Source of the DNA: Calditrichota bacterium
GTDB lineage: Bacteria > Zhuqueibacterota > Zhuqueibacteria > JANLFK01 > Oleimicrobiaceae
Length of the DNA: 64,000 bases
Assembly: GCA_014359355.1 (NCBI GenBank)
Contig: JACIZP010000177.1
Coordinates: forward strand, 662 to 64,661
Reading direction: 5' to 3'
Shown in pieces: positions 15,301 to 63,995 of this stretch. Positions within the stretch are counted from its first letter, which is position 1, and the number at the start of each line of letters is the position of its first letter. Both the position numbers and the translations under genes were made by a program. Under the pieces are notes generated by a model. That model saw only the letters and a list, made by a program, of their open reading frames with translations. It made no database searches and was not told where the DNA came from.

Positions 15301-15358
15301 AAAACAAAAAGGGCGGTCCTCTCCCCTGGATCCTTGCGCGGATTTCGGGAGACCGCCC
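15301..15358 (-). terminator. Strong intrinsic terminator/attenuator hairpin inside the TBDR upstream region
   Basis: Minus strand: GGGCGGTCTCCC-20 nt loop-GGGGAGAGGACCGCCC followed by TTTTTGTTTT; lies between a sigma70-like promoter (15444-15471) and the receptor start, or alternatively terminates the upstream operon ending at 15605. Confidence 0.55.
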
Positions 15359-15443
15359 CCTGGCTTCTGGCACAACGGGCTATTGGCATGGGTCTGGCAG
15401 CTCCTGCTAATAGCCTTTTCTTTTCTGGGGGTTTCTATGCCGT

Positions 15444-27451: not shown

Positions 27452-27535
27452 TACACGCTGTGAAGCGGGTGGGATGAACGGTATCGGTCGTCACTCTCTG
27501 CTTCAGGGGCACAACCATAAGCAGTGGAGGCTGAG

Positions 27536-30500: not shown

Positions 30501-31981
30501 TCTGCTATGACACTACCTCGAACTTGGTGATTACGGTCTACAAGACCACCGATCCCGGGGTGAACGGCTCAACTGAGCCAATAGAGGTGGTGGAAGCGGT
30601 GATCGACGCACCCAACACGCTCACCGTGAAGGACTACAAGGGTGCCGACGGCGAGGGGGACCAGGGTGGTTATGTGACGCTGGTCTGGGACTTTTCGCAG
30701 AACCATCCTGGCATCGGTACGGTCAACATTATCGACTACTACCAGATCTACCGCGTGGTCGAGGGCAAGCTCTTCCATTGGGGCACCGTGCAAGCGACTG
30801 ACCCGCGAAAGAGCGAGGCGGACTCGGTGCGCGTGGTGGTGCCCACCTATGACAATGTGATCTCGGACTTTTACGTGCAGGCTGTCAAGAATCCTCCCCC
30901 GCTCACGGCTGCGGCCCCGCTCTTGCCTGATGAGGACGCCATCCCGCTGCCGGCGGGGTACGTGTTTGCCATGCCGCCGAAGGGCGACAATGGCGAGGTG
31001 ACTGTCGCTGCCGCCATGACTGCTGGGCAGTTGGTGTCGCCGCTCACCAAGGGCACGGGTGGCGCCACTGACGACATCCCGCCGGCAGCCATCACCGAGG
31101 CGGCTATTCGCAAGATTAGTGCGCAGGCGAAGCTGTTCTGGCCAAAGGTCACCAAGGGCATCGATGGCTCGCCGGAGCGTTCGCGGATTACCTATCGCGT
31201 GTATGCGCACCCCAGCAATGCCTTCTTTAACGTTGGAGACCCGGACGCGGTACTTCTGGGTAGCTGCGCAGATACCTTCTTGGTGGTGAACGTCGATGCC
31301 TTGCGGCGGTTCTACATGGTGGTGGCCATGGACGACAACAACATGTCCGGCCCCTCCAACCGCGTCGGCCATTACGGCTTTGCCTTGAACAAAGGCGAGA
31401 CGCGCAAATACACGCACATCTCGCTGCCGCTGATCGATCCGAACATCACCGACGCCAAGTCATTAGCCGCCAGCATCGGCGGTGTGGCTGCGGTGTACAA
31501 GTTGGACCCAGCGACCAACGCCTACACCACGTACTGGCTGCCAGATATGGGTTTGGGCACCAACTTCCCCATCACCCCTGGCATGGCCTGCTTGGTCAAC
31601 CTGAAGAGCGACGCACCCAGCACCTGGTTCATGGTGGGGTCGGTGCCGTACCCAGGCAGCGTTCGTTTCACGCTGGCCAAGACCAAGACGCGTACCTACA
31701 ATGAGATCAGCGTGCCGCTTGACCGTCTGACCCTGACCAACGCCGCACAGCTGGCCGCCAGCATTGGCGGCGTGGAGGCGCTCTACCGGATCGACCCGGC
31801 TACCAACGCCTTCACGCAGTATTGGCTCGTGGCTCAGGGCTTGGGCACGAATTTCCCCTTGAACCCAGGCGAACCGGTGCTCCTGTTGGTGAACCAGTCG
31901 GCTCCCAATCAGTGGCCGGCAGGCAGCATGACCGCTGCGCTCCCTGTGGGCGAACAGCCTGCGGGCGCAAAGGAAGAATGA
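27536..31981 (+). CDS. Giant secreted surface protein (1481 aa) with Ig-like/beta-rich repeats and C-terminal tandem ~90-aa repeat
   Basis: GGAGG RBS 6 nt before ATG 27536; signal peptide (LIGVGLLLFYTTAAVAQQ); Thr/Gly/Asn-rich beta-strand composition; last ~190 aa contain two copies of ISLPLxxxxLTxAxxLAASIGGVxAxYxxDPATNAxTxYWLxxxGLGTNFPxxPG; no T9SS CTD. Confidence 0.6.
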   Translation: MAAKRIQASTLIGVGLLLFYTTAAVAQQGSIGNRATADPAYTGYAAWIKLTVAGPAGNNSLNDNFAGAKVEIDLNIDGDNNEATNPGDVYEASGDAGEMVTDPLGSGGAFDQYFYVRIKSGANNPFPDGVGYDTDLRPRVKFAASGFLRVGGVPIQTETGFVNATDDITPRMRKIEHYDDGTGHMPGSPGNQVQYDGYIDKIIIEWSEPMRTSNVAASTAIFGGLGSSVSSIEATGAWADNKHFVMWPVSISPNSGITPTLSYYPPPSNSDKFASATLQYAETHAKVVTDRSGPAIVSAQTKRATRRQALAAALAAKRIRVVFSEPVAFNYIQGTDFTVTINGVNNPVASIVSPTTANPPTNTYEFALTNDFVHEDVTGSISYTGTMLVRDVSPDSNYNGVGPTRTITDGILPNIVSVRTVDGLSATNAGANGWGYLDWVEVTFDHTYNGMDQARLSTLGFTVTGTGILTIGATGSWASATTFRIPLVATSPKVPNTDLVPTVTYVNPGSTTGLRSAVNNGLAENLLATDVTPSSENASPVQIIDGAGPALIEAYTAGGNRIRLTFSEKVNTAGWPTTEPAAQVPSRFKWFVGLRNFSAAGTKVFFTGLSGTNQDNVIYLNSTGATWTKTDSGFVNFYGTNVVYDVATPANGNLQWDDDGSIVGFTGTTSDVKVKRDNIAPILLGLYTQDFDADGTLDHYRFVFDPLSPIFPKTSFKAANWTIAGYDGPKSGISLNMNVYNPAHAQYKPTAINTFGDTVEAYISFNETTAGGPPATPYGGDTGDVPDVIVEAGKGFADWADNVMAALGEGLSLESDKAGPAIMSAKTISTTTVEILMSEKVQGLDLADFDLTMGFVPPLASVTQPSDARVLLTVAPYAQWAPTQTGTVRLTGVNKIYDDIAGTNNGNMQTASIAVIDATASYFIVSQVYKEGSQFTGVPFDIKVIAKDSHGTTDVNFTVPIQFAANKQRVTLPTGVQRLTNGEGVFQIVCYDTTSNLVITVYKTTDPGVNGSTEPIEVVEAVIDAPNTLTVKDYKGADGEGDQGGYVTLVWDFSQNHPGIGTVNIIDYYQIYRVVEGKLFHWGTVQATDPRKSEADSVRVVVPTYDNVISDFYVQAVKNPPPLTAAAPLLPDEDAIPLPAGYVFAMPPKGDNGEVTVAAAMTAGQLVSPLTKGTGGATDDIPPAAITEAAIRKISAQAKLFWPKVTKGIDGSPERSRITYRVYAHPSNAFFNVGDPDAVLLGSCADTFLVVNVDALRRFYMVVAMDDNNMSGPSNRVGHYGFALNKGETRKYTHISLPLIDPNITDAKSLAASIGGVAAVYKLDPATNAYTTYWLPDMGLGTNFPITPGMACLVNLKSDAPSTWFMVGSVPYPGSVRFTLAKTKTRTYNEISVPLDRLTLTNAAQLAASIGGVEALYRIDPATNAFTQYWLVAQGLGTNFPLNPGEPVLLLVNQSAPNQWPAGSMTAALPVGEQPAGAKEE

Positions 31982-41288: not shown

Positions 41289-42371
41289 TTAGTAGACACA
41301 CTCGCGCGCCGCGTCGGCATAAGCCTGTAGGTTCTCCACTGGCGCATGGAAGAAGTGGTCGCAGGTGCTGAGAATGTAGCCGCCGCCTGGACCTGCCGCA
41401 GCAAAGTTCTTCAGCACCATTTCGCGGACTTTTTCTGGTGTGCCGTAGGTGAAGCCGTGCGTCTGGTTCATCCCGCCGATCATGCACACGTACTGCCCAA
41501 CCCGTCGCTTTGCTGCGGCCAAATCCACATCGCCGCCGATCTCGCGCGGGGTCAAAGTTTCGATGGCGTCCACCTCCGTGCCCACAATCTTCTCTAAGAT
41601 GGGCATCATGCCGCCGCAGGTGTGGTACACCACCCGCATGCCCACTGCATGCAGGGCGCGGTGCACCTCGCGGTCGTAGGGGGCCACAAACTGCTCGAAG
41701 ATCGTAGGCGAAATCACCGTCGTCGAGGCGTCGCCGCCGCCACCCTCGATGAGGTCGTAGGCGCTGTCCTTGTACTGTTCCACAAAGGCCAGCTTCTTGT
41801 CGCGCAGAATGCGCAGGAACTCGTGCACCCAGGCCGGGTCGTCGAAGGTGGCCATAATCATCTGCTGCGTGCCGTACCACTGGCAGGCGTCTTGCCAGCA
41901 TCCGGGCTGCTGGTACGGAAGCACCCCGCGCACGATGCCGTCGTCGCGCACCCGGTCGCGCCAGGAGGCGACCAGCTCCTTGTCCAGGCGCGGCACAGGC
42001 ATGTATTTTTCGATCCAGCGGATTTGCTCGGGGTGTTTGAGTGGGTAGTCGGCGATCCACGAGGTGTACTGGTCCGCCTCGTACACTGCCACAAAGCTTC
42101 CCTCAGGCGTCGTGATGGTGCGGAGCCAGCGGCGGTAATCGGGCCGCTCCTCAACGACCTCTTCAGTGACCCGCCACTGTGGACTTTCCATGTCCAAGAA
42201 GGGCGAGACATAGATGGACGCATCGAGCCCGAAGCGACGAAAGGCCTCCAGCGGGTCAATGCCGCCCAGGTAGTGGTCGAGGTAGTACTTCATCCAGTCG
42301 TGCAACGTGGCGGGCAAGCGATCCGGCTTGCCGCGCTGCAGTGCCGTCAAAAGGCGTTCCCGTGAGGTCAT
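41289..42371 (-). CDS. Uroporphyrinogen decarboxylase (URO-D)/MtaA-like family protein
   Basis: 360 aa; 'RLPATLHDWMKYY' N-terminus and TIM-barrel-like pattern of URO-D/corrinoid methyltransferase family; precise activity unknown. Confidence 0.5.
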   Translation of the reverse strand: MTSRERLLTALQRGKPDRLPATLHDWMKYYLDHYLGGIDPLEAFRRFGLDASIYVSPFLDMESPQWRVTEEVVEERPDYRRWLRTITTPEGSFVAVYEADQYTSWIADYPLKHPEQIRWIEKYMPVPRLDKELVASWRDRVRDDGIVRGVLPYQQPGCWQDACQWYGTQQMIMATFDDPAWVHEFLRILRDKKLAFVEQYKDSAYDLIEGGGGDASTTVISPTIFEQFVAPYDREVHRALHAVGMRVVYHTCGGMMPILEKIVGTEVDAIETLTPREIGGDVDLAAAKRRVGQYVCMIGGMNQTHGFTYGTPEKVREMVLKNFAAAGPGGGYILSTCDHFFHAPVENLQAYADAARECVY

Positions 42372-43885
42372 GGCTGCGCTCTCTCCTGATGAGATCCGAT
42401 TGCTGCGCCGTCTGCTAAGACGCGGGCGGTGAGGAATGCCAGCCGCGCCGCGGCTGTAAAGAGCTCTGGCCGTAAGGTCTCCGGCCTGTCAGAGGGAAGG
42501 TGCAAATGCTCGTAGCTGTTGGTAGTGGCAAAGTAGAGGTTGGGCACGCCCCGGCGATGGAATGGACCGGCATCGGCTCCGCCGCCCCCTCCAGTAGCTG
42601 CGCTGAGGAGCCGCGTGTGCAACCGGTCCTGTTCCTGCACCAGGGCAAACAGCTCCGAAAAGTCCACTCCCCCATAGACCGCCACGCTGTCGCCGGTGCC
42701 GATGCAATCCAGGTTCAGCATGGCAACGGTCCGCTCCAAGGGAAAGGGTGGGCGACTTGCATAGGCATCGGCGCCCAGCATTCCTTGCTCCTCGCTGGCG
42801 AAAAGGGCAAAGACTATGCTCCTGCGAGGCCGAGAAGACGCTTGCGCAAAGGCCTTGGCGATGGCCATCACCGCCGCGCTCCCGGAGGCATTGTCGTTGG
42901 CCCCCGGGTAGTAGACCTCCGGCGACTGCCGCCCCACGTGGTCGAGGTGCGCGCCGATGACCACGCACTCTTCCTGCACCTGCGGATCAGAGCCAGGCAA
43001 CAGGGCGACCACGTTCATGGTGCGCTTTGCCTTGGCGTAGCGGGCGCGGACCTCCACTCTCACCTTGGTGCGCAAGGGGAACGACCGCGGCATGTGGGTC
43101 GAATCGATGACCGCCTGCAGGGCCGCCAGGTTCACGCCCGCATCCGCCAGCATCTCGTCCGCCAGCGCCACGTCGATGTGCAGCTGTGGGATGTCCTGCT
43201 GCTCGCCAGGTCCATGCATGACGCTGCCGATGGGCCTCTGCACCGGCTGGCTATTTGGGCAAGAGACAAGCAGCAAGGCACGAGCGCCGCGACGGCGCGC
43301 TGCTTCTGCCTTCGGCCTGGGCAGGGCGCGCTCGCCCCAGTTCGCACCTGGCGGTTGCCACGCCGGCGGCTGCTTGAAGGCCAACACCACCTTGCCGCGC
43401 ACATCGACGCCGGCATAGTCGTCGTAGCCATGTTCGGGGCAGGAGAGGCCATAGCCGCAAAAGACCACCGGCGCGGTGACCTTGCCGCTGCCGCTAAAGC
43501 CGCGCGCCACAAATTCCTTGCCCAGCACGCACTCCCGGACCACCTGGCCGCCCGCGCTCAGAATCGCTAAGCGAGGAGGGCTGAGCAACTCATTGTACTC
43601 CACATCCAGGTACTGGAAGTAGCCCTGGTCCCCGGCCGGGCGCAAGCCGAGCCGCTCGAACCACGCCGCAGCATAAGCGGCTGCTTTGTCGTACCCCTTG
43701 CTTCCTGGCAATCTGCCGTCCAGCTCGGGCCGACAGAGCTCGCGCACAATTTCCATCAGCGTCGGCGCGTCGATCGCCTCCGCACCGGCCTGCCCTGAGG
43801 ACACGCCTGCGCTGCCGCACAGGAACAGCAGGACCACCAACGCCCCTTCAACACCCCGTACGACCCTCGATTTCGTGGATCTCAC
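42368..43885 (-). CDS. M28-family aminopeptidase with PA domain, secreted
   Basis: Signal peptide; 'NVVALLPGSDPQ...VIGAHLDHVG' and 'GANDNASGSAAVMAIAKAF' zinc-ligand motifs; 4-nt overlap with downstream gene. Confidence 0.8.
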   Translation of the reverse strand: MRSTKSRVVRGVEGALVVLLFLCGSAGVSSGQAGAEAIDAPTLMEIVRELCRPELDGRLPGSKGYDKAAAYAAAWFERLGLRPAGDQGYFQYLDVEYNELLSPPRLAILSAGGQVVRECVLGKEFVARGFSGSGKVTAPVVFCGYGLSCPEHGYDDYAGVDVRGKVVLAFKQPPAWQPPGANWGERALPRPKAEAARRRGARALLLVSCPNSQPVQRPIGSVMHGPGEQQDIPQLHIDVALADEMLADAGVNLAALQAVIDSTHMPRSFPLRTKVRVEVRARYAKAKRTMNVVALLPGSDPQVQEECVVIGAHLDHVGRQSPEVYYPGANDNASGSAAVMAIAKAFAQASSRPRRSIVFALFASEEQGMLGADAYASRPPFPLERTVAMLNLDCIGTGDSVAVYGGVDFSELFALVQEQDRLHTRLLSAATGGGGGADAGPFHRRGVPNLYFATTNSYEHLHLPSDRPETLRPELFTAAARLAFLTARVLADGAAIGSHQERAQP

Positions 43886-46303: not shown

Positions 46304-47974
46304 ATGATGAATCGCATCGCAGAGCAGTTGCAAAAGATTGTCGGCGAGGATTACCTCTTTACCCCGGAGCGGCCGGAGTACTGGGCCTACACCTTTGGCG
46401 ATGCCACCATGTATCGCTCCCGCCCGGACTATGTGGTCTACCCCGGTTCAATCCAGGAGATCCAGGCGGTGGTAGAGCTCGCCGGGCGTCACAAGGTCAA
46501 GGTAGTACCCGGTGCCGGGCTCACCGGCCTGTCGGGGGGTGCCCTGTGCGATGGCGGCATCCTCCTCAACCCATCGCGCTTGCGCCAGGTGTTGGACATT
46601 GACCCCATCACCCGCACCGTGGTCACGCAGCCGGGCATCAGCTGCGCCGAGCTCAATCGCCGGTTAGCGCCCTTTGGCATGGTCATTCCGGTGGCGCCTG
46701 CCTCGCACGAGATTTCCACCATCGGCGCCAACATCGCCGAGTCATCAGGGGGCACTTGGGGCATGTCCAAAGGCACGTTCAAGAACTATCTCTTGGCGCT
46801 GAAGGCAGTGGACGGCAAAGGCCGCCTGTTCAGCGCCGGGCACCGCTGTCCCAAGGAGAGCACCGGCCCGAACATAGTGGGCCTGATGATCGGCTCCGAG
46901 GGGACGTTGGGCATCATCGTCGAGATGACCTTCCGCTGCGACTTTTTGCCTGAGGACACCTGGACCATCCGTTGCAGCTTCCGCGACGAGTCGGTGTTGC
47001 AACAGATTCACGAAGCGGTGGCTAAGGCGCGCATCAACCTCTTCTCCTTCGAGTACATGGACACGAAGATGATGGCCTGCTTTGGCAAACAGAACATGCT
47101 CCTCCTGTTCCAGACTGCCGGCGGACCGCATGAGGCCAAGGAGAACGCGGAAAAGTTAGTGGCCGTGCTCAAGGCCCTGGACCCGCTGGAGCTCCGCTAC
47201 ACCAACGACCCCAAGGAGGCAGACGAGCTCTATGCGGAGCGCCGGAGCTGCCTGGGGGCAATGGCCAAGTTCAAGCGCGAAAAGCCGGTGATCGTGCAGT
47301 TCGACCCGGTGCTGCCCATCGCCAAGTTTGCGGCGGGGGTACGCAAGATGCGGGAACTGGCCGCGCGCGAGGGGTTGGAACTCATCATCTACGGACACGC
47401 AGGCGACGGCAACCTGCATCCCAGCTTCATCGTGCGCGACTGCCAGGAGGATAAGGAGAAGGCGGCACGCGTGGTGCGCGAGTTCGACGCCTGGATCGAG
47501 GCAGAGGGCGGCTGTTTTGCCGGCGAACATGCCATCGGCAACTTCTTAGGCAGATGCGAGGAGCAGCTCAGCCCGGACATCGTGGAGTACGTCAAGGGCA
47601 TCAAGAAGGCCTTTGACCCGCTGGGCATCCTCAATCCTGGCAAAGTCTTTGACGTGCAGGCGCCGAGCTTAGCGGTGGACCCGGTGCTGCCGCAGTACCA
47701 GGCCATCTACGAGCTCAGCAAGCTCTGCTGCAAGTGCCACCTGTGCAAGAACGACAGCCCGCGCTTCAAAGAGGTGCCGTTCGAGCACCACACCATCCGC
47801 GGGCGGATTGCCATGATCGACGCTGCGGCGCGCGGCAAGGTGTCGTTCGCGGCCATCAGGCCCTTTGTGGAGGAAATGCGCCCGTGGACGACCAACATGA
47901 ACTGTCCCACCTTCATGAAGGAAGAAATGGGCAAGCTGATTGACTTGGCCATCCAGGCAGGGAGGGCGGCATGA
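46304..47974 (+). CDS. FAD-linked oxidase (GlcD/D-lactate dehydrogenase family) with Cys-rich C-terminal extension
   Basis: FAD_binding_4 'VVPGAGLTGLSGGA', 'GPNIVGLMIGSEGTLGII'; C-terminal CCKCHLC...CPTF cluster suggesting Fe-S/CCG-like tail. Confidence 0.7.
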   Translation: MMNRIAEQLQKIVGEDYLFTPERPEYWAYTFGDATMYRSRPDYVVYPGSIQEIQAVVELAGRHKVKVVPGAGLTGLSGGALCDGGILLNPSRLRQVLDIDPITRTVVTQPGISCAELNRRLAPFGMVIPVAPASHEISTIGANIAESSGGTWGMSKGTFKNYLLALKAVDGKGRLFSAGHRCPKESTGPNIVGLMIGSEGTLGIIVEMTFRCDFLPEDTWTIRCSFRDESVLQQIHEAVAKARINLFSFEYMDTKMMACFGKQNMLLLFQTAGGPHEAKENAEKLVAVLKALDPLELRYTNDPKEADELYAERRSCLGAMAKFKREKPVIVQFDPVLPIAKFAAGVRKMRELAAREGLELIIYGHAGDGNLHPSFIVRDCQEDKEKAARVVREFDAWIEAEGGCFAGEHAIGNFLGRCEEQLSPDIVEYVKGIKKAFDPLGILNPGKVFDVQAPSLAVDPVLPQYQAIYELSKLCCKCHLCKNDSPRFKEVPFEHHTIRGRIAMIDAAARGKVSFAAIRPFVEEMRPWTTNMNCPTFMKEEMGKLIDLAIQAGRAA

Positions 47975-49119
47975 AGATTGTCGTTGCCCCGGATTCGTTC
48001 AAAGGGAGCCTGTCGGCCCTGCAGATTTGCGAGGCCATGGAGCGCGGCATCAAGCGCGTGCTGCCGAAGGCAGAGGTCGTGAAGATCCCGATGGCCGACG
48101 GCGGGGAGGGCACCGTACAGGCTCTGGTCTCCTCCACCGGCGGGCACATTGAGAAGGTCACCGTGGTGGGGCCGTTGGGCGAGCCGGTGGAGGCGGAGTA
48201 TGGCATCCTGGGCGATGACCAGACGGCGGTCATCGAAATGGCAGCTGCCTCTGGCCTGCCGCTGGTGCCGGTGGCGAAGAGGAATCCGGTGGTCACGACC
48301 ACCTTTGGCACCGGGCAGCTCATGCGCGCGGCCTTGGCGCACGGCTGCCGGCAGCTCATCGTCGGCATAGGCGGCTCTGCCACCACCGACTGCGGCACAG
48401 GGATGGCGCAGGCGCTGGGCGTGCGCTTCTACCGCAGCGACGGCAGCGAAATCACCGACTATATGTGCGGCGGCCTCATGGCGGAAGTGGCGCGCATCGA
48501 CCTTTCCGGCAGGCTGCCGGAGCTGCTCCAGGCCACCGTCACTGTGGCCTGCGATGTGGACAATCCCCTGCTCGGCCCGCGCGGTGCGGTCATGACCTAT
48601 TCCCGGCAGAAAGGCGCCACCGACGAGCAGCTGGCCCTGCTGGAGAAGAACATGACCCACTTTATCGGCGTGGCGGAGCAGACGATCGGCCGTTCGGTGC
48701 GTGACCTGCCGGGTGCCGGTGCCGCCGGTGGACTGGGCGCGGGCTTGATGGCCTTCGCCAATGCTACCTTGCAGCCAGGCGTGGCCATTGTCCTGCGCGC
48801 CTCGCGCTTTGCCGAACGCATCAAGGGCGCTGCCCTCATTCTGACCGGCGAGGGCAAAGTCGACTTCCAGACCGCCTATGGCAAGACCATCAGCGGCGTG
48901 GCGGCAGAGGCGCAGAGGCAGGGGATCCCGGTGATCGTTTTGGCCGGAACGGTGGAAGACGAGGCGGAGAACTTGTACGAGCGGGGGGTGGTGTCGCTAT
49001 TTTCCATCTGCCCGGGGCCAATGAGCTTGGAGGAAGCTATGCAGCAGTCGGCGACCCATGTGGAAAAGGGTGCCGAAAGAATCGTGCGTGCCCTCAAAGC
49101 AGTCAACCTCAAGGACTGA
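47971..49119 (+). CDS. glxK: Glycerate kinase
   Basis: 'MKIVVAPDSFKGSLSA...MADGGEGT' and 'GIGGSATTDCGTGMAQALG' glycerate kinase family I motifs; ATGA overlap with upstream oxidase. Confidence 0.85.
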   Translation: MKIVVAPDSFKGSLSALQICEAMERGIKRVLPKAEVVKIPMADGGEGTVQALVSSTGGHIEKVTVVGPLGEPVEAEYGILGDDQTAVIEMAAASGLPLVPVAKRNPVVTTTFGTGQLMRAALAHGCRQLIVGIGGSATTDCGTGMAQALGVRFYRSDGSEITDYMCGGLMAEVARIDLSGRLPELLQATVTVACDVDNPLLGPRGAVMTYSRQKGATDEQLALLEKNMTHFIGVAEQTIGRSVRDLPGAGAAGGLGAGLMAFANATLQPGVAIVLRASRFAERIKGAALILTGEGKVDFQTAYGKTISGVAAEAQRQGIPVIVLAGTVEDEAENLYERGVVSLFSICPGPMSLEEAMQQSATHVEKGAERIVRALKAVNLKD

Positions 49120-50070: not shown

Positions 50071-53000
50071 CTACAGTCGGCCAGCCAGAACCACCGTGGC
50101 TCTGGCGGTTTCCACGGTACCGGCTGCGGCGTTGAGCGCTTCCAGGTAGACGATGTACACCCCGATACGTGCCTGCTGGCCATGATCGTCCCTGCCGTCC
50201 CACACCACCGCATTGGAGGCGGCCACCGGCTGGTTGCTCGCTAAGAAGCGAATGAGGCGGCCGGTGACATCGTAGATCTTGACGTTCACGGCAGCCGTGG
50301 TCATCGGCAAGGCGAACGAGATGACGGCAAAGTCGTCGCGCCCGTCGCCATCTGGCGAAAAGGGCGAGGGCGAGACGCTGAGCGTGGTGCGCGGCGGTAC
50401 CACCATGGTGAGGACGCTGTTGGCACGGCCTGGCGTCCCCCCGGTCTTGTCCACGCACGAGCTCCAATTGGACTTCAGCTGCGAAGGCAGGCTTGGGTTG
50501 ATTCTTTCGAGCGAGACGCCCGTATCTCCGCCCCAGCTCTGGTCGTAGGCCACACTGTCGATGACCGTGCCCTGGGGGTCGTAAACGACCACGGCGTCGC
50601 CAGTCGCGGAGAGCGCAGGCCATGAGGGTACTACCAGCAGCAGACTTTCGCCGAGCTCGCCCGCCTTTGCTAAGGAAGAGTCTTCGGCAAGCAGCACAAA
50701 GCCGCCGGGCGGCACGAGCAAGAGATTGCTGCTCACCACCCGGCGCTTGGCCAGGTCCGCATCGGAGAAGAGCCACTTCTCCAAGTTTACTGCCGCCTCG
50801 CTGCGATTGTACAGCTCCACCCACTCGCCCATGCCGCTGAGCGGCGCGTACATGATCTCGTTGACCACCAGCGTCCCCCTGGCAAAGCCCACCATCAGTT
50901 CAGCCACGGCGATGTTGTTGGCCGGCCTCATGTCGCCTGCACAGGTCACCAGCACGCCGATCCACATGACGCCAGCCGGGGCTTCGCGCCATTCCACCTC
51001 CACCGACCGGCACTCATCAGGGGCCAGTTGTGCTATGTCGACCGGTTCCCCCAGTCGCTCGCCCGGCGCAAATACCGTATCCCGGTTGGCGTCCCAGAAG
51101 AACTCCACCCGCACGTGCTCGGCGGGCGCCCGACCTTCGTTGCACACCTGGGCCTGAAGCCGCACGCTTTCGCCAACACGAGGTTGCTCGGGGAGGAAGG
51201 AAAGCCCGGCACCAGCCACACCAACGTCCACCGTCAAGGGGCTCACGCTGTTTTCTGTCCCAGGGGTGGCTCCTTCGGGGGCAGTGCTCAGCCGCCAGTT
51301 GGCGCTGTCCTGCGAGCCCCACTCGTAGCGCACCCGCTCCAGGGAAACGCCAGTGCGCATCCCCCAGCGAGAAAAGTAGTGCACGCTGTCCACCACCACG
51401 CCCGCGGGGTCGTACACCCGCACCTCATCCTGGTCATTGTTGAGCGCGGCCCACCCCTGCTTCACTGTCAGCAGGGGCGCAGGAAGCTGGCCGTACTGGA
51501 AGCGCACTACAGAATCGGCGGCGACCACCGCAAAACCACCCACTGGCACGCGCACGTGGGTGGTGCCGAAAAGCCGCGGACCGGAAGTGGCATCGCCCAG
51601 TCCCCAGCCGTAAAGGTCCACCTCGCTAGGTCCGGCATTGTAGAGCTCAACCCACTCACTCTGCCCGGAGAAGGGTGCGTACATAATCTCATTGACCAGC
51701 ACCTGCCCCACGGGAAAGGCCACCACCAATTCCGCGAAACGGCGGTCATTGTCCGGCCGCTGGTCATTTGGGCAGCTCGCCGCCACTGCGATGCTGTGCA
51801 CTCCTGGCGGCACTCCTTCCCAGCGGAAGAGCAAGGTCTGCTTCGCGCCACTGGCCAACTCGCCCACCACCTGTGGCGCATCCAGCCGTTCCGCAGCCGT
51901 CAGCACGGAGTCGCCGTCTGCGTCCCAGTAGCAGCTCACCTCCACGCCGGCCACCGCCTGGCGGCCTACATTGCGCACTGCCGCAGCGATCGTCACCGAT
52001 CCCTGCGCACGAGGCACAAACGGCGCCCACTGAATCGACCCCGCCACCACCTCGACGTCCACCGCCAGGGGACTCACGCTGTTCTCCAGGCCTGGCGTTC
52101 CGCCGCGTGCGTTCACCGCAGCACGCCAATTGCTGGGCAGGTTGGACGGCTCTTCCGCGCGCACCCGTTCCAGGGACACGCCTGTTCGCACCGGCCCCCA
52201 AGAAGCAGCATAAGCCACGCTGTCGATGGTTGCCCCTGTCAGATCGCGAACAACCACCAGGTCGGCGTCGTTGTTGAGGGTCGGCCATTTGCTGCCGATC
52301 GTCAGCAACAGGCCGCCAAATTCCGGAAAGTCCCTCTTCATCGTCGTGTCTTTGGCCACGACCAGGTACCCGCCTGGCGGTACCACGATGTGGCGGTCGG
52401 TGAGGCGCACCAGTGTTCCGACGTTCTCGTCGCTCACCGTCCAGTCATAGACGTCCACACCGCTGTCACGAGGGTTGAATAGTTCTATCCACTCGCACGC
52501 GCCGGACTGGGGTTGGAACATGATCTCATTGATGATGAGGTCTCCGCTCTGGAAAGGCACGCGATACTCCCCGTACGCCATGTCGTCGGAGGTGTCAGGA
52601 TCCGCCACCTCAACCAGTCGAGCAATGATGCGGCTGAGCCCAGGGGCAGCGGCTCCCAGCTCGACGCTGCACAGCAAAGAGTCGCCGCCTGCCAGGCCCG
52701 CCAAGGGACAGGAGAGGCCCACCAGCTCCTGCGCGCCGGGCTTGAGGTCATAGTCCGCGTCGCGATAGAAGGCGACCATGCCGCTCTCCGCCGTATCCAT
52801 GCCGTGATTGTAGACCCACACCGAGGCGCGGACCGTTTGCCCATAGCGAGGCTGTGGCGGCTCAAACTGCACCCCGGCAGAACCAAGTCCAACATGCTTG
52901 TCGCGCGGACGGATGCTATTCGGGGCATTGGGCGTACCGCCCAACGGCGCCCGGCAGGGACCCCAGTTCTTGCGACTGTTGGTTGGCCAGTCTGGCCTCA

Positions 53001-54312
53001 CCCGCTCTATGGACACGCCCGTCTCGCCACCCCAAGAGGCGAAGTAGTACAGGCTGTCCACCGAAAAGCCTGCGGCATCCCAAATCACCACTGCATCGCT
53101 GGTGTTGTTAAGAGCAGGCCAGCCCCGTCCCGGCACAAACACCGGGCCGGACAAAGTGGGAAAGAGCGCCCGAACCAGGGTGTCCTCTGCGAGCAGGGCG
53201 AAGCCGCCAGGAGGGAGGAGCGCCTTTGTGCTGGTGACCGTAACTCGTGTAGCAGTGCGGGAATCGCTTAGCGACCACAGCCGCAGGTCGATCACCTCCG
53301 GGCTGCGGTTTAGGATCTCCACCCACTCGGGCTCCCCTGCACTTGGCCGGTACATGACTTCGTTGACCACCACCTCGCCGGGCCACACGCCGACGCCAAG
53401 GGTCACCCTCTGCTGGTCGTTCTCCGCGGAGCTGTCGCCTTCGCCCACCACCCGCGCAAGTAGCTGGTGCACTCCAGCCGGCACCTCATGCCAGGTGAAC
53501 CGTGCCACCGCACTGTCGCCTGGCTGCAGAGAGGGGCTGACAAACGGCGCTTCCAGGAGTTCCTCTTCCCTGCCGAAACCGTCCTCGTCGCGATCCAAGT
53601 ACAGGGCAATCTGGCAGCTGGCGATTTCCTTGCGGCCGGCGTTCAGCGCGACCACCGTAAGCTGAACGCTCTGGCCGCGTCGGACACGAGACGGCGACCA
53701 GACCACGCTCTTGAGCGCCAGGTCTATGGCTCCCGCGCTCACGCTGTTGGGCGCGCCAGGCGTACCCCCGAGCACCCGGCTGTTCGCCCAGTTGGCAGGT
53801 GCGTCGCCGGCTTCGAGATCGATCTTCTCGTCAGAGTACCCCTGAGGGTTGTCCAGGGTGTAGCGATAGCGGCTCACCGTGTCGCCCCTGGCGTTGGTGA
53901 GAATCACCGGTTCGGGAATGGTGTTTGACCACCCGCCGCTGCCAAAGGCGCCGTCGTCAATTTTCACAATCAATGCTTCGGCAGGGATGACGCCGTCGTA
54001 GGTGGTGGAGTTGCCGAAGTAGCTGCCGTCGAGGATGACGGCGAACTGCCGCGGCCGGAGGATGAGCCCCCACCCTGCGTCGATAATCTTGTCCAACTCG
54101 ATGCTGTCGCCAACGGCCCAACCGGCGAGGTTCACAGAATCCGTCGCACTGAGGTTGAATATTTCCACGTACTCGTCGTGGGCCTCGTTGGTGGCGGGAT
54201 CGAACATGACCTCTGACACGGTCACCTGCCCCAGGCTGCGACCTGGGCTTGCGGCCAAGATAAGGAAGGCTCCAATAACGAAGAAGCGGCGATAAAACTT
54301 TGACTCAGCCAC
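50071..54312 (-). CDS. Giant secreted protein with five lamin-tail domains (LTD) alternating with CARDB/Ig-like domains and C-terminal FlgD-Ig-like domain
   Basis: GTG start 54312 with purine-rich RBS (ORF track extends upstream into purA region); signal peptide; five repeats of NE(I/V)M(F/Y)xPxxGxxEW(I/V)ELxN...D(L/V)xxWxLxD...PPGG(F/Y)xV...ALNNxxDxVxxxDxxGxxxDSVxY...WG...GVSLERV; C-terminal 'PFSPDGDGRDD...VKIYDVTGRLIR' FlgD-Ig-like. Confidence 0.7.
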   Translation of the reverse strand: MAESKFYRRFFVIGAFLILAASPGRSLGQVTVSEVMFDPATNEAHDEYVEIFNLSATDSVNLAGWAVGDSIELDKIIDAGWGLILRPRQFAVILDGSYFGNSTTYDGVIPAEALIVKIDDGAFGSGGWSNTIPEPVILTNARGDTVSRYRYTLDNPQGYSDEKIDLEAGDAPANWANSRVLGGTPGAPNSVSAGAIDLALKSVVWSPSRVRRGQSVQLTVVALNAGRKEIASCQIALYLDRDEDGFGREEELLEAPFVSPSLQPGDSAVARFTWHEVPAGVHQLLARVVGEGDSSAENDQQRVTLGVGVWPGEVVVNEVMYRPSAGEPEWVEILNRSPEVIDLRLWSLSDSRTATRVTVTSTKALLPPGGFALLAEDTLVRALFPTLSGPVFVPGRGWPALNNTSDAVVIWDAAGFSVDSLYYFASWGGETGVSIERVRPDWPTNSRKNWGPCRAPLGGTPNAPNSIRPRDKHVGLGSAGVQFEPPQPRYGQTVRASVWVYNHGMDTAESGMVAFYRDADYDLKPGAQELVGLSCPLAGLAGGDSLLCSVELGAAAPGLSRIIARLVEVADPDTSDDMAYGEYRVPFQSGDLIINEIMFQPQSGACEWIELFNPRDSGVDVYDWTVSDENVGTLVRLTDRHIVVPPGGYLVVAKDTTMKRDFPEFGGLLLTIGSKWPTLNNDADLVVVRDLTGATIDSVAYAASWGPVRTGVSLERVRAEEPSNLPSNWRAAVNARGGTPGLENSVSPLAVDVEVVAGSIQWAPFVPRAQGSVTIAAAVRNVGRQAVAGVEVSCYWDADGDSVLTAAERLDAPQVVGELASGAKQTLLFRWEGVPPGVHSIAVAASCPNDQRPDNDRRFAELVVAFPVGQVLVNEIMYAPFSGQSEWVELYNAGPSEVDLYGWGLGDATSGPRLFGTTHVRVPVGGFAVVAADSVVRFQYGQLPAPLLTVKQGWAALNNDQDEVRVYDPAGVVVDSVHYFSRWGMRTGVSLERVRYEWGSQDSANWRLSTAPEGATPGTENSVSPLTVDVGVAGAGLSFLPEQPRVGESVRLQAQVCNEGRAPAEHVRVEFFWDANRDTVFAPGERLGEPVDIAQLAPDECRSVEVEWREAPAGVMWIGVLVTCAGDMRPANNIAVAELMVGFARGTLVVNEIMYAPLSGMGEWVELYNRSEAAVNLEKWLFSDADLAKRRVVSSNLLLVPPGGFVLLAEDSSLAKAGELGESLLLVVPSWPALSATGDAVVVYDPQGTVIDSVAYDQSWGGDTGVSLERINPSLPSQLKSNWSSCVDKTGGTPGRANSVLTMVVPPRTTLSVSPSPFSPDGDGRDDFAVISFALPMTTAAVNVKIYDVTGRLIRFLASNQPVAASNAVVWDGRDDHGQQARIGVYIVYLEALNAAAGTVETARATVVLAGRL

Positions 54313-54365
54313 TGCCCTTCTCCCCGCTCGTGCTGAACGGTAGCTGGTCTGTAGCGATGATGCGA

Positions 54366-55640
<1,275 letters not shown>

Positions 55641-59304: not shown

Positions 59305-59325
59305 ACGGAAAAAGGCGAGGCCGGC

Positions 59326-60876
59326 TCACGTCTTCGGCACCAGCTGGCGCACTGCGTCGATGATTGTACCATCCCGAAACTCGATGAGCGCCACGATGCG
59401 CTCGGTGAACGTGGGCTTTTCCGGCTGCCCTGTCATGTCGATCGCCATGCGGTAGAGCTTGTCGATGGGCACGATGGGCAGACTGCTCCGCTTCAAGCGC
59501 TGCAGCAGGTCTTTCCGCCGTGGGTTGATGGCAATGCCGCGCTCGGTGACCACCACGTCGATCATCTCGCCTGGCGCAGTAACGGTCACCACCTTGTCCA
59601 CGATGATCGGCACCCGCCCACGCACCAGCGGCGCGGTGATGATGGTGACCTCTGCGTCGGCGGCGTCTGTGAACCCGCCGATGCCGTGCAGCAACCACCC
59701 GTCGGAGTGGGTGTTCACGTTGACGTTGAAATCAAGGTCGATTTCCGTGGCACCCAGCACCGAAACCTTGACCATCTGGGCAAAACAACCCTTGGTGTGG
59801 TAGTTGTAGGAGACGAAAGGATTGGTCTCGATGTGCCGCGGGTTGTCGCGCAGGGACTGCACTCCAGCCAAGTCAAAGCTCTGGCCGTCGAGAATGTAGC
59901 GGGTGAGGCCCTGGTTGAGCAGGTCCACCATGTACTGCGTCGATCCGCCTCGCACAAAATCGGCGACGACGCCGGCGCGGGCCATGTGCTCGGCCATGAA
60001 CTGCACGAACGCAAGGGAGACACCTCCGGCCCCAGCCTGAAAAGAGAAGTGCGGCTCGTGCATGATGCCGCTATCCACCACCAGCTGCGCGGCGTACTTG
60101 GCGATGAGCAGCCGCGTGGGGCTGCGCGTGATGACCGTGGTGCCGGAAACGATGCGCGCAGGGTCGCCGATGGCATCCACCTGGACGACATAGTCGACGT
60201 TGCCGCCCTGGATGCTCCATGGGTAACAGGGGAAGGGCACAAGGTTATCGGTGACCACCACCACCTTGTCGGCATAAAGGGAATCGGCCAAGGCAAAGCC
60301 GAGCGGGCCGCAGGCCGATTTGCCATAGACGCCGTTGGCGTTGCCGTGGGCATCGGCAGCCGGTGCGGCAATGAAGGCAACATCGATGTGCAGGTCGCCA
60401 TCCTGGATGGCGCGATAGCGGCCGCCGTGGGAGCGGAGCACGCACACGCTCTTCATCTTCCCCAACGAGCACGCCCTGCCCACCGGCCCGTTCATTGAGC
60501 CCTCCACGCGGCGCACCACGCCCTTTTCGATGTGGCGCACCAACGGCTCGTGGCAGGGGAAGAGCGCAGACGGGGCGACCACCAGGTCTTTGAGGCCTCT
60601 GCGCGCCAGCTTGTCCATGACCATGTTCACCACATAGTCGCCATCCCGCAAGTGGTGATGGAAGGAGACCGTCATGCCGTCCTTGATGCCGCAGGCATCG
60701 ATGGCGTCGTCCAGCGACTTGAGCAGTTTGTTGCGGTAGTCGCTGGCTGCACGAATCAGCGCGCCAGCAGTGCGTCCCCCACCTTTGTCGGCATGAGCCC
60801 CTTGGAATGGTCTAAGCTTTCTCCCTTCAATCTCTGTGGGCACTAACCGCCCAACGGCGTTCTCTACCAGGTCCAT
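59326..60876 (-). CDS. citF: Citrate lyase alpha subunit (citrate CoA-transferase)
   Basis: Start at MDLVENAVGRLVPTEIEGRKL; 'LDDAIDACGIKDGMTVSFHHHLRDGD' and overall ~516 aa match CitF family. Confidence 0.75.
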   Translation of the reverse strand: MDLVENAVGRLVPTEIEGRKLRPFQGAHADKGGGRTAGALIRAASDYRNKLLKSLDDAIDACGIKDGMTVSFHHHLRDGDYVVNMVMDKLARRGLKDLVVAPSALFPCHEPLVRHIEKGVVRRVEGSMNGPVGRACSLGKMKSVCVLRSHGGRYRAIQDGDLHIDVAFIAAPAADAHGNANGVYGKSACGPLGFALADSLYADKVVVVTDNLVPFPCYPWSIQGGNVDYVVQVDAIGDPARIVSGTTVITRSPTRLLIAKYAAQLVVDSGIMHEPHFSFQAGAGGVSLAFVQFMAEHMARAGVVADFVRGGSTQYMVDLLNQGLTRYILDGQSFDLAGVQSLRDNPRHIETNPFVSYNYHTKGCFAQMVKVSVLGATEIDLDFNVNVNTHSDGWLLHGIGGFTDAADAEVTIITAPLVRGRVPIIVDKVVTVTAPGEMIDVVVTERGIAINPRRKDLLQRLKRSSLPIVPIDKLYRMAIDMTGQPEKPTFTERIVALIEFRDGTIIDAVRQLVPKT

Positions 60877-60895: not shown

Positions 60896-62083
60896 TCAGT
60901 CGATAAGGCCAAGGGCCTTGGCCAATTGCAGCGTACGCTTTGCCCGTGCCACCACGGGCGCATCGATCATCTTTGTGCCGAGACTGGCGACACCCGCACC
61001 GCGGCGCTCTGCCTCCTCCAACGCAGCAATCACTTGCTGCGCATGCGCAATCCGCTCCGGAGTCGGCGCAAAGGCGCGATGGATGGGCTCAATCTGCGCT
61101 GGGTGGATGACCCCTTTACCTTCAAAGCCCAAGGCGATGGCCTCTTCTGTGCTCTTGACCAAACCGTCGACGTCGGCAACATCGGAGAACACGGTGTCGA
61201 TGGCCTGCACCCGTGCGGCCTTTGCCGCCAGCACCAGCAGGCTGCGCGCCACAAAGCTCTCCTTGCCCTCAACGGTGCGCTCTGCGCCGATGTCTGCGGT
61301 AAAATCCTCCGCTCCGAAGCAAAGGGCGACCACCCGCTGACTGGCAGAGGCGATCTGGTATGCGTTGAGCACGCCTTTGGCGCTTTCGATGAGCGGCATG
61401 AGCCAAATCTGATAGCGAAGGCGATGCTCTCTTTCGAGGGCAGCGACTCTCTCCTCGACCTCCAGCACGCTTTCCGCTGCCTCGCACTTGGGGATGAGGA
61501 TGGTATCAGGTTGGGCCGGTACCACCATCTCTAAGTCGGCTGCGCCAAATTCTGTGGCCAAGGGGTTGATGCGCACGATGCGCTCGGCAGCACCAAAGTC
61601 CACCGCCAGCAGGCTGTTGCGCACCAACACGCGGGCGGCCGCCTTGTCTGCGGGCGCTACCGAGTCCTCAAGGTCCAGAATGACGCTGTCCGCCCCAAAG
61701 AGTCCTGCGTTGAGCATCAGGTCTGGATTGTTGCCGGGCAGATAGAGGCGCGTGCGCCGTAGGCGATCTTTGGGTACCTGTCTCCGCTTGATCCGCCGCT
61801 CCGGCCAGACGCCCAGCCCTTCGACAGGCCAAAGGGCGCGCACCCCCGCCTCCACGCGAGCCTGAATGACGTGGTCTAAGGCGCCCCTGTCGTCTACCGT
61901 CAGGGAGGCATGACGCACGCCCAAAGCCTCGAGGGTAGAGAGAATGGTGGCACGGATTTGTTGGCCAAAGGTGCCCGCCACCGAGCTGACCAGGTCGAGC
62001 CGGATGCCACCGCGTGTCCGTCGCTCGATGGTCAGCAGCAGGTCGCTCTTGTCACTCCTTCCGACTTGGATCTTCTCTGCCAT
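60896..62083 (-). CDS. Fused citrate lyase acyl-carrier (CitD, gamma) + citrate lyase beta/citryl-CoA lyase (CitE) protein
   Basis: Residues ~10-85 'SDKSDLLLTIERRTRGGIRLDL...IRATILSTLEALGVRHASLTVDDRGALDHVIQARVEAGV' align with CitD incl. VDDKGALD block; residues ~110-395 'RRTRLYLPGNNPDLMLNAGLFGADSVILDLEDSVAPADKAAAR...' HpcH/HpaI-CitE fold; single continuous frame. Confidence 0.65.
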   Translation of the reverse strand: MAEKIQVGRSDKSDLLLTIERRTRGGIRLDLVSSVAGTFGQQIRATILSTLEALGVRHASLTVDDRGALDHVIQARVEAGVRALWPVEGLGVWPERRIKRRQVPKDRLRRTRLYLPGNNPDLMLNAGLFGADSVILDLEDSVAPADKAAARVLVRNSLLAVDFGAAERIVRINPLATEFGAADLEMVVPAQPDTILIPKCEAAESVLEVEERVAALEREHRLRYQIWLMPLIESAKGVLNAYQIASASQRVVALCFGAEDFTADIGAERTVEGKESFVARSLLVLAAKAARVQAIDTVFSDVADVDGLVKSTEEAIALGFEGKGVIHPAQIEPIHRAFAPTPERIAHAQQVIAALEEAERRGAGVASLGTKMIDAPVVARAKRTLQLAKALGLID

Positions 62084-62121: not shown

Positions 62122-62706
62122 TCACAACAAGCTGGTGACCAACTCCGCCTTGGGGGCTGGAATCACCACCTTGCGCATGAGCAAGCCCTTGCGCTGTACC
62201 ACTGCCGCGCCTGCCTCCACTGCCGCCCTGGCTGCCGCCACCTCTCCCGTGAGGGTCACGAACGACTTGCCGCCAAGTCCCACGGCCAGACGCACCTCGA
62301 TGAGGGTCACCTTGGCTGCCTTGGCCGCGGCATCGGCCGCTTGAATGCTGGAAGCAACCGAAAAGGTCTCGATGATACCCAGCGCCTCGACTTGTTCAAC
62401 TGCGGAGGTCGCGTTGATTGCCGGGAATACGCTCTGGTGGACGCGCGGCAGGACCATTTCGTCGACGACCGTTTCGCCACCTCTGGTCACGCCGGCGTTC
62501 ACGCTGCTCTGCACGGCGGCGACATCGCCACGCACCAGGCAGATATACTTGCCAGGGCAGACCGTCTTGGCCACCACCAGCTCCACCTCGCTCACCTTGA
62601 GCATGGCGTCGGCTGCCTCGATGCCCACGGCGATGCTGTTGAACTCCACCAGACCTATGCAGTCACGCGCCGCTTGCGTCATCATCCCTCTGCCACTTCG
62701 GTTCAC
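62122..62706 (-). CDS. Bacterial microcompartment shell protein, tandem BMC-domain (PduT-like BMC-T)
   Basis: Two BMC domains: 'IGLVEFNSIAVGIEAADAMLKVSEVELVVAKTVCPGKYICLVRGDVAAVQSSVNAG' and 'LGIIETFSVASSIQAADAAAKAAKVTLIEVRLAVGLGGKSFVTLTGEVAAARAAVEAGA'; conserved Cys in KTVCPGKY as in PduT (4Fe-4S site); start may be internal ATG 62682; GTGA overlap with upstream gene. Confidence 0.8.
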   Translation of the reverse strand: MNRSGRGMMTQAARDCIGLVEFNSIAVGIEAADAMLKVSEVELVVAKTVCPGKYICLVRGDVAAVQSSVNAGVTRGGETVVDEMVLPRVHQSVFPAINATSAVEQVEALGIIETFSVASSIQAADAAAKAAKVTLIEVRLAVGLGGKSFVTLTGEVAAARAAVEAGAAVVQRKGLLMRKVVIPAPKAELVTSLL

Positions 62707-63995
62707 GATGCTTCGATGCAGACCATTTCCTCATCCACTTCTGCCACACGGCCAGAGATGGAGGCGTGCACCCGGGCGCTCACCTCGTCTGGGTGGCAAT
62801 CGCCGATGAGTTGCCCAACAACTACCTGCTGGCCGCGCGTTACCACCGGTCGTGCTGGGGCCCCTGCGTGTTGCTTGAGGCGGATGCGCACCCGTTGCGG
62901 GGCCACGGCATCTTCCCAGTAGCGCGCCGGACGGGCATAGGGCGTGAGCTGGAACCGCCCCATCAAACGCGAGGTGGGAATGCGTCGACTGCCCAGGGGC
63001 ACGCGCGCCTTGGTCTCGCGTGGCGCGGGCGCCTGCACCCCTCCACTGCGCAGAGCACGCTTCAACTCCCTGTTCACCAGGCGCGGCGACAACCCCATGG
63101 GACAGGCGTATTCGCAGGCCCCGCACTCTGAGCAGAGCAGGGCCATGCGCGCCACCTCGCTTTTGGCATCCAGGCCCAAGGCCATAGTCCGCATCACTCG
63201 ATGCGGCTCCAAGTGGTGCCCCAGCAGGTAGCGATTGCACGTCTCCGTGCACAATACACACTGCGTGCAAGCAGACCTCGCGTTGCGCAACTGGTGGGCA
63301 ACGCTCTGCGTGCGCGCCTGGACGCAGGGGTGCGCCAAGGGGAGCATAATTACCGCCGCGGTGGTCTTGTCAATGGGGGCCTCGGGATCCGTGGTTAGCG
63401 TCCCCATCATGACCCCGCCCATGAAAAACGCGGGGGCTTCGCACTGCGTGCCGCCGCAGAGCGACAAGAGCTCCCGTACCGTGGTGCCCACAGGCGCACG
63501 CACCACCTTCGGCTGCTGCACACAGCCGCCCACCGTCAGGGTACGGTGCGTGACTGGCTCCCCTTGCCACGCAGCAGCCACATTCCGGAGCGTCTCCACG
63601 TTTTGCACCAGCACACCCACGTGGACCGGCAGCCCCCCTTCGGGCACTAGCCTCCCGGTGGCAAGGGCCACCACCTCATGCTCGTCACCCGCCGGGTAGG
63701 CGTCAGGAAGCTCGACTACCTCCACGCCCTCGCGCCACGCAGCAATCAAGTGCCGGTTCTTTTTCTTGAGAGCGATGGCGAGCCTCTGCGCACCTGTTGC
63801 CTGGGCGATGAGCCGCAGCCCCCTGAGCACTTGCTGCCCCTCGACCCGCAAGACCTCCTGGTCGTTGCACAGAAGAGGCTCACATTCCGCAGCGTTGGCA
63901 ATCACCCACTCCACCCGGTGGGCGAACTTGTGGTGCGTAGGAAATCCTCCGCCTCCACCGCCAACCACACCTGCAGCAAAGACCTTTTGCGCCAA
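62703..63995 (-). CDS. PduS-like RnfC-family flavoprotein with two 4Fe-4S ferredoxin motifs (5' end probably outside window)
   Basis: 'AAGVVGGGGGGFPTHHKF...VIANAAECEPLLCNDQ' (RnfC/PduS NADH-binding + SLBB), 'CTQCVLCTETC' and 'CSECGACEYACP' ferredoxin motifs; ORF reaches window edge. Confidence 0.7.
   Translation of the reverse strand: MAQKVFAAGVVGGGGGGFPTHHKFAHRVEWVIANAAECEPLLCNDQEVLRVEGQQVLRGLRLIAQATGAQRLAIALKKKNRHLIAAWREGVEVVELPDAYPAGDEHEVVALATGRLVPEGGLPVHVGVLVQNVETLRNVAAAWQGEPVTHRTLTVGGCVQQPKVVRAPVGTTVRELLSLCGGTQCEAPAFFMGGVMMGTLTTDPEAPIDKTTAAVIMLPLAHPCVQARTQSVAHQLRNARSACTQCVLCTETCNRYLLGHHLEPHRVMRTMALGLDAKSEVARMALLCSECGACEYACPMGLSPRLVNRELKRALRSGGVQAPAPRETKARVPLGSRRIPTSRLMGRFQLTPYARPARYWEDAVAPQRVRIRLKQHAGAPARPVVTRGQQVVVGQLIGDCHPDEVSARVHASISGRVAEVDEEMVCIEAS

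Follow-up and report, generated by a model that had tools for sequence, protein, structure and literature searches.

Why does a gene for a microcompartment shell protein with an apparent iron-sulfur cysteine stand beside genes for citrate lyase, a non-redox enzyme, and where is the shell to which such a protein would belong? The question is raised by a stretch of 64,000 nucleotides (nt) from a Calditrichota bacterium (contig JACIZP010000177.1 of the assembly GCA_014359355.1), here called the window, in which an earlier note, made from the letters alone, had pointed to a PduT-like shell protein of the tandem-domain class (BMC-T) of bacterial microcompartments (BMC), encoded next to a PduS-like protein. 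Our answer is that the two genes probably encode the cofactor-recycling module known as MNdh/BMC-T^SE, lying as a satellite or fragmented locus for a shell whose genes stand at another place in the genome, and that they came to stand next to the citrate lyase genes by insertion into a chromosomal slot, with no metabolic link between them.

The shell protein gene and its key motif are placed as follows.

62122-62682, minus strand: gene for the BMC-T^SE (PduT-type) shell protein, 186 amino acids with two PF00936 domains; the maximal open reading frame (ORF) reaches back to a GTG at 62706
62548-62559, minus strand: CPGK pore motif, residues 42-45; the codon of Cys42 is 62557-62559, and Cys42 is the predicted ligand of a [4Fe-4S] cluster in the trimer pore

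The ORF from 62122 to 62706 on the minus strand, from which the earlier note started, does exist, but its 5' end is probably set 24 nt too far upstream. The GTG at 62706 overlaps the stop codon of the upstream PduS-type gene, and a deposited protein of 186 amino acids, 100% identical to ours (NCBI MBC7186897.1, from a metagenome-assembled genome (MAG) labelled 'Calditrichaeota bacterium'), starts at the ATG at 62682, which is thus the likely start of the gene. Both BMC domains were recognized by Pfam (PF00936, E=4.6e-46), and a monomer model built by AlphaFold2 on 45 homologues (mean pLDDT 92.5) folds into two alpha/beta BMC repeats; together with the Foldseek comparison this assigns the protein to the single-layer tandem type, BMC-T^S. 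The solved structures closest in sequence are 3nwg from Desulfitobacterium hafniense (E=6.9e-58), PduT of Citrobacter (3pac, 6.6e-47) and the C38S mutant of Salmonella PduT (3n79, 3.2e-44), while the Haliangium BMC-T without the cysteine gives a weaker match (4.8e-28). The same order is found in structure: 3nwg superimposes on the model with a TM-score of 0.92 and a root-mean-square deviation of 1.0 A, the PduT structures with 0.86 (3pac) and 0.84, and the Haliangium BMC-T structures with 0.75-0.81. Hence the PduT-like identity first proposed for this protein holds, and the alternative of a better fit to BMC-T families lacking the Fe-S cluster finds no support in either ranking (TM-scores of 0.92 and 0.86 for the PduT type, 0.75-0.80 for the non-Fe-S type). 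It was not assigned to PduT in the strict sense, that of the PDU microcompartment, since its score against the eut_PduT equivalog model (TIGR02526) is 127 bits, below the cutoff of 250.3, and no pdu genes are present in the window. The best match in a scan of GTDB genomes is 63% identical, and the closest in a metagenome scan 62%.

The motif KTVCPGKY occupies residues 39-46 of the shell protein. Its cysteine, which the earlier note had equated with the Fe-S cysteine of PduT, aligns without a gap to residue 38 of PduT, both in 3pac and in 3n79, where a serine is found because that structure is of the C38S mutant. In the monomer model the strands 34-42 and 45-52 form a hairpin that has Cys42 at its tip, and in BMC proteins it is this hairpin that forms the pore. 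Neither the alignment nor the model contradicts the placement that had been suggested, and the residue-for-residue equivalence with the crystallised PduT argues for a position of Cys42 at the pore of the trimer. By analogy with the characterised homologues, the protein would form trimers in which three Cys42 residues bind a single [4Fe-4S] cluster. Cys42, Gly44 and Lys45 are invariant in all 120 nearest homologues. At position 43 there is serine in 82 of these, proline in 37 and alanine in one, so that the form C-S-G-K is seen in 82 of 120 near homologues, as against the C-P-(G/S)-K given in the literature; the second position of the pore motif evidently varies more than the published consensus suggests. 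By its sequence, then, the protein is a PduT-type tandem BMC-T that keeps the Fe-S cysteine.

The partner gene lies directly upstream, with 20 nt between its stop codon (62703) and the start of the shell protein gene (62682). Its recognizable parts are these.

62703-63995, minus strand: gene for the MNdh (PduS-type) NADH dehydrogenase, 430 amino acids from the TTG at 63995, the start being at or just beyond the edge of the window
63933-63971, minus strand: glycine-rich GVVGGGGGGFPTH loop, inside the Complex1_51K match
63237-63269, minus strand: first CxxCxxCxxxC motif (C243, C246, C249, C253), predicted to bind a [4Fe-4S] cluster, inside the Fer4_17 match
63102-63134, minus strand: second motif, CxxCxxCxxxCP (C288, C291, C294, C298), predicted to bind a [4Fe-4S] cluster, aligned to the cluster motif of RnfC
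62724-62912, minus strand: C-terminal RnfC_N barrel-sandwich domain (PF13375, residues 362-424, E=2.8e-16)

The N-terminus of this protein aligns with the start of the homologue from one related locus (L059). The order of its Pfam domains is Complex1_51K (PF01512, residues 6-140), SLBB (PF10531, 154-198), Fer4_17 (242-303) and RnfC_N (362-424). The glycine-rich loop is presumably the FMN/NADH site of the Nuo51/RnfC fold; in the form GVVGxGGxGFP(T/S)H it is kept in seven of eight aligned MNdh homologues, the remaining one, from the KSB1 locus L021, having GIVG. The two ferredoxin motifs noticed earlier in the PduS-like protein are both present, and all eight cluster cysteines are invariant in the eight homologues (41-100% identity). 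When compared with RnfC in the cryo-EM structure 7zc6 (chain C), with which it shares the FMN/NADH domain, SLBB and two [4Fe-4S] motifs, residues 7-300 of the protein match residues 129-416 of RnfC and residues 369-420 match residues 33-83; it is therefore circularly permuted, the RnfC_N domain, N-terminal in RnfC, having moved to the C-terminus. The possibility that it is the RnfC subunit of an Rnf complex was accordingly rejected: RnfC_N is C-terminal, the neighbours are the shell and citrate lyase genes with no rnfABDEG genes adjoining, and the score against TIGR01945 is 233.7, under the cutoff of 245.95.

The combination of these two genes is known. Sutter et al. (PNAS 2024, PMC11626177) named the pair MNdh (metabolosome NADH dehydrogenase) and BMC-T^SE, and distinguished MNdh/PduS from RnfC by the permuted, C-terminal RnfC_N domain. 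They found MNdh in 2,172 of more than 7,000 BMC loci, with the BMC-T^SE gene directly adjoining in 97% of the MNdh loci, and the sequence CP(G/S)K is universal in the BMC-T^SE proteins adjoining MNdh, without being conserved among the remaining BMC-T^S proteins (PMC11626177). The window agrees with this description in the single-layer tandem tile, the CP(G/S)K pore cysteine and the adjoining partner gene, in the partner's PF01512, PF10531, 4Fe-4S dicluster and C-terminal PF13375, and in the placement of the pair away from a main BMC locus, as in the types PVM and ACI; it differs in that neither a main BMC locus nor an aldehyde dehydrogenase is visible, in the host, which belongs to the division KSB1, and in the run of citrate lyase genes. 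The proteins themselves show no departure from the family, and at the level of sequence their identity as MNdh and BMC-T^SE is clear. Among single relatives, 3nwg is the closest solved structure (57% identity, with the motif VCPGKY), though it comes from a Firmicute. PduT and PduS of Salmonella and Citrobacter (3n79, 3pac) share the fold (TM-score 0.84-0.86), the Cys38 equivalent and the domain set of PduS, but PduT is just 42-44% identical and there are no pdu or B12 genes near the pair. BMC-T1 of Haliangium ochraceum (HO-5812; 5dih) and its engineered Fe-S variant (5dii) have the same single-layer tandem fold (TM-score 0.75-0.81), but the natural protein is without the pore cysteine (PMC11626177) and matches less well than the PduT type.

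For the published pair, NADH oxidation inside the compartment is supported by activity assays, electron paramagnetic resonance, voltammetry and X-ray footprinting, the electrons leaving the compartment by way of FMN and then three [4Fe-4S] clusters (PMC11626177); the conserved cysteine and a proposed electron path from PduS to PduT had already been noted in loci without B12 enzymes (Axen 2014, PMC4207490). The electron conduit across a shell, which had been proposed for the window from its letters, is thus the experimentally supported function of the family to which the pair belongs; this molecular reading is right, and it is already published as a general mechanism. Applied to the window, three copies of the tandem protein would assemble into a pseudo-hexameric shell tile, with one [4Fe-4S] cluster held by three Cys42 at the central pore. 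MNdh would dock at the lumenal face of the tile and oxidise NADH at its FMN, and the electrons would then run from FMN over the two [4Fe-4S] clusters of MNdh and the pore cluster to a cytosolic acceptor, regenerating NAD+ for an encapsulated aldehyde dehydrogenase. The pair would in this way serve an aldehyde-dehydrogenase compartment encoded elsewhere in the genome. The fold, the sequence motifs, the order of the domains and the side-by-side placement of the two genes in the window are those of the module; the docking, the electron path and the service to a compartment would be as in the characterised homologues.

An older role has been described for such a partner: earlier work, to which both PMC4207490 and PMC11626177 refer, characterised the PduS proteins of Salmonella and Citrobacter as corrin reductases, and the MNdh of the window has the identical domain set. 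The pair could then act by reducing cob(II)alamin and so reactivating B12 for an encapsulated B12 enzyme, the cluster in the shell being accessory. However, the Pfam scan of about 45 ORFs of the window brought up neither a B12-dependent enzyme nor a gene for cobalamin, and it has been argued that a B12 function cannot explain the spread of the module over non-B12 types of BMC (PMC11626177). We regard this role as highly improbable here.

Nor does the pair look like a relic. The organism is a member of Candidatus Zhuqueibacterota, the division formerly called KSB1, and the proteins that cluster with the shell protein at 90% identity are labelled Candidatus Oleimicrobiaceae, a family of that division. 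In eight relatives, whose shell proteins are 89-94% identical to that of the window, the gene order is the same over a neighbourhood of 20 kb: acyltransferase, QueH, radical SAM protein, kinase, outer membrane protein, rhomboid protein, amidase, MNdh and BMC-T^SE, followed by CitDE, CitF, SecD, SecF, a STAS protein, PurA and a protein with lamin-tail domains (LTD). PurA is only 73-80% identical among these relatives, and because the shell protein is better conserved than PurA, the pair appears to be under constraint by purifying selection. The D-x-x-x-K residues at the edge of the tile, which serve incorporation into BMC shells, are present in both BMC domains (D25/K29 and D117/K121) and invariant in an alignment of 45 sequences; this invariance, and the conservation above that of PurA, argue for a protein that still does its work as a shell tile. 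That the pair is what is left, in decay and without function, of a microcompartment locus since lost might be suspected from its isolation from other BMC genes, but both ORFs are intact and of constant length in the relatives (186 amino acids for the shell protein; 435-439 for MNdh in the gene calls, 430 in the window), and Cys42 and the eight cluster cysteines of MNdh do not vary. Such decay is therefore extremely improbable.

Isolation is also not peculiar to this lineage. For a comparison of PduT-type genes 114 loci were fetched, among which 83 had enough flanking sequence and 40 had at least 8 kb on both sides. A PduS-type gene directly adjoins the PduT-type gene in 76 of the 83. In 23 of the 40 the pair is isolated (these are from Ignavibacteria, Verrucomicrobia, Acidobacteria and the Oleimicrobiaceae lineage), and in the remaining 17 it stands among genes for BMC-H or BMC-P. 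Satellite placement was likewise found to be frequent in the literature, in 18 of 20 PVM and 5 of 7 ACI cases (PMC11626177), and in BMCs of the FRAG type, which occur in Ignavibacteriae and candidate phyla, the shell genes are spread over up to six sites (Sutter 2021, PMC8217296). Isolated pairs are thus a common and published configuration. The window resembles these satellite and fragmented loci (PMC4207490, PMC8217296) in having shell and enzyme genes apart from a BMC-H/BMC-P cluster and in coming from a candidate phylum of the FCB group; by definition, though, a satellite locus presupposes that its genome has a main locus as well. Genomes of the KSB1 division do encode full BMC loci: L021, a KSB1 locus and one of the 17 just mentioned, carries genes for a DeoR-like regulator, two BMC-P, MNdh, BMC-T^SE, PduL, an aldehyde dehydrogenase, BMC-H, an aldolase and acetate kinase (read from ORF order and tblastn, not from Pfam).

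Several observations weigh against a satellite module serving a shell elsewhere. Searching the whole window by tblastn with BMC-H and BMC-P queries revealed no further shell gene, and the Pfam scan of its ORFs gave no BMC-type aldehyde dehydrogenase, PduL-type (PTAC) protein or aldolase; apart from the pair and the citrate lyase genes, the scanned ORFs are those of housekeeping and transport. Nor did tblastn give a match to a further shell protein, an aldehyde dehydrogenase or a PduL-type protein within 10 kb of the pair in the eight syntenic relatives. A search with a BMC-P of KSB1, in which the best 120 matches were considered and only about a quarter of them were named, so that its power is low, gave no accession-block link to the eight annotated proteins from MAGs of the lineage. 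A shell in the genome of the window is therefore putative. Furthermore, MNdh of the window is only 68-71% identical to its counterparts in three of the relatives (L001, L059 and L062), as against 89-94% for the shell protein and 94-96% for CitF; MNdh thus evolves much faster than the tile on which it is thought to dock. Finally, the pair and the two citrate lyase genes are co-directional, with gaps of about 20, 38 and 19 nt and no terminator-like site in between, so that the pair and citrate lyase are likely to share a transcript, which could be of significance for regulation.

The first of these points would be accounted for if the lineage had no microcompartment at all, the pair being a shell-less orphan that works as a soluble or sheet-forming NADH:acceptor oxidoreductase. 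No other shell gene is seen in the 64 kb or near the pair in the relatives, no BMC-P from the annotated MAGs of the lineage is among the named matches just mentioned, and, isolated though it is, the pair shows strong conservation. On the other hand, isolated pairs are the documented norm in PVM and ACI (PMC11626177) and FRAG types scatter their shell genes (PMC8217296), the tile-edge D-x-x-x-K is still invariant, and the BMC-P search has little power, with the MAGs themselves being incomplete. On balance a shell-less orphan seems to us unlikely. A bolder form of the idea is that in Candidatus Oleimicrobiaceae the pair was freed from the icosahedral shell, is co-transcribed with citrate lyase and acts as a free-standing, NADH-oxidising tile for electron export. 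It would, if true, be the first natural BMC shell protein working outside a microcompartment, and we think it quite unlikely.

As for the citrate lyase genes, the earlier note was correct that they lie next to the pair, since a CitD-CitE fusion and CitF follow downstream; every feature that it described is there, and well above what chance would give.

60896-62083, minus strand: gene for a CitD-CitE fusion (acyl carrier and beta subunit), a neighbour outside the module, recognized by Pfam ACP and HpcH_HpaI and by NCBIfam citD/citE
59326-60876, minus strand: gene for CitF (citrate lyase alpha), a neighbour outside the module, with 582.9 bits against TIGR01584 (cutoff 501.45)
59315-59329, minus strand: terminator-like hairpin with a T-rich tail over the citF stop codon, a consensus match only

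The fusion gene begins 38 nt downstream of the shell protein gene. For CitF the likely start is 60876, giving 516 amino acids as in the homologues, although the maximal ORF reaches 60963. The hairpin is the only terminator-like site outside the coding bodies in the four-gene run, and the region has no more sites of this kind than shuffled sequence would be expected to give. SecD, SecF, the STAS protein and PurA are encoded downstream of citF. A sigma-70-like promoter was also noticed inside the shell protein gene (62372-62399, minus strand: TTGAAC, a spacer of 16 nt, TATCAT; 9 of 12 positions, a consensus match only), about 290 nt upstream of citDE, which could give citDE-citF a transcript of their own. 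The fusion protein has 395 amino acids, and the architecture of ACP and HpcH_HpaI is found in all of its 120 best homologues; the named ones include MAGs of KSB1, Krumholzibacteriota and Eisenbacteria, and one is labelled Bathyarchaeia. Though citDE-citF looks intact, no citC (ligase), citG or citX for the holo form of the acyl carrier protein was found among the scanned ORFs of the window; the genes for the prosthetic group must be elsewhere, or the citrate lyase must be activated differently.

Is the pair then tied to citrate lyase in function? The four genes could be one operon, in which the pair provides a redox module for citrate fermentation or citrate lyase is the cargo or the feeder of a BMC. 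The short gaps on one strand, with no terminator-like site until the end of citF, speak for such coupling, as does the persistence of the arrangement across several MAGs whose PurA has diverged to the extent given above. However, cit genes flank the pair solely in the Oleimicrobiaceae syntenic set, and because its members share complete synteny over about 20 kb, these genomes count as one evolutionary observation. More than 100 other PduT loci are without cit genes. The KSB1-type relatives whose shell proteins are 67-74% identical to ours have a glgC-like gene, the pair, and then an M28 peptidase or an acetyltransferase, without cit genes. (The M28 peptidase of the window itself, 42368-43885, was considered as an orthologue of the one flanking the pair in that group and was rejected, the identity being just 29-32%.) Conversely, the cit backbone exists without the pair. 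In the loci L115-L117 of a KSB1 group (CitDE 66% identical), CitDE-CitF lie upstream of SecDF-PurA with no pair, and in L118 (CitDE 69% identical) the order is rhomboid, amidase, glutamate dehydrogenase, CitDE, CitF, SecD, SecF, STAS, PurA. The glutamate dehydrogenase gene of L118 (3253-4542) occupies the slot between amidase and citDE, which in the window is the place of the pair. Citrate lyase, moreover, is non-redox, forms no aldehyde product and does not use NAD. No tail resembling an encapsulation peptide is apparent on CitDE, the citE profile running to residue 392 of 395, or on CitF, whose 516 amino acids show no obvious terminal extension in a manual comparison with the E. coli CitF. 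Functional coupling of this kind is very unlikely in our view, and the tie between pair and citrate lyase that the earlier note implied is not borne out.

Because the backbone also occurs without the pair, citDE-citF-secDF-purA is taken as the older arrangement, and the slot between amidase and citDE appears, from these gene orders, to be a hotspot for gene replacement within it. The link of the pair to the cit genes is best read as positional, through a variable chromosomal slot. A two-gene cassette in such a slot fits the frequent transfer that has been proposed for the module (PMC11626177).

Elsewhere in the window a few other features were noted. The gene at 50071-54513 (minus strand) encodes a protein of 1480 amino acids with five lamin-tail domains as well as CARDB and FlgD-Ig-like domains; the relatives carry similar LTD/CARDB/FlgD_ig proteins at the matching position, and L001 and L062 have, at the other end of the contig, a separate large FlgD_ig protein with a match to Por_Secre_tail (sorting by the type IX secretion system). 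Two further long ORFs, 27524-31981 (plus strand, 1485 amino acids) and 8947-12051 (minus strand, 1034 amino acids), have no Pfam match at E<=1e-5, with a GC content at third codon positions typical of real genes; the second adjoins a gene for a TonB-dependent receptor (12091-15375). At 46304-49119 (plus strand) there are a GlcD-type FAD-linked oxidase of 556 residues, which has a cysteine-rich C-terminal extension (the matches to Pfam stop at residue 448), and a glycerate kinase, the start of whose gene is overlapped by the last codons of the oxidase gene. The two enzymes may form a route from glycolate or D-lactate to glycerate.

Taken as a satellite module inserted into a variable slot, the locus adds one more lineage, Candidatus Oleimicrobiaceae of the Zhuqueibacterota (KSB1), to those in which the published module stands apart from other shell genes, and it suggests that the module shifts between chromosomal slots as a two-gene cassette. 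If no other shell gene were present in complete genomes of the lineage, the pair would instead point to a tile with an Fe-S pore that has a life outside microcompartments.

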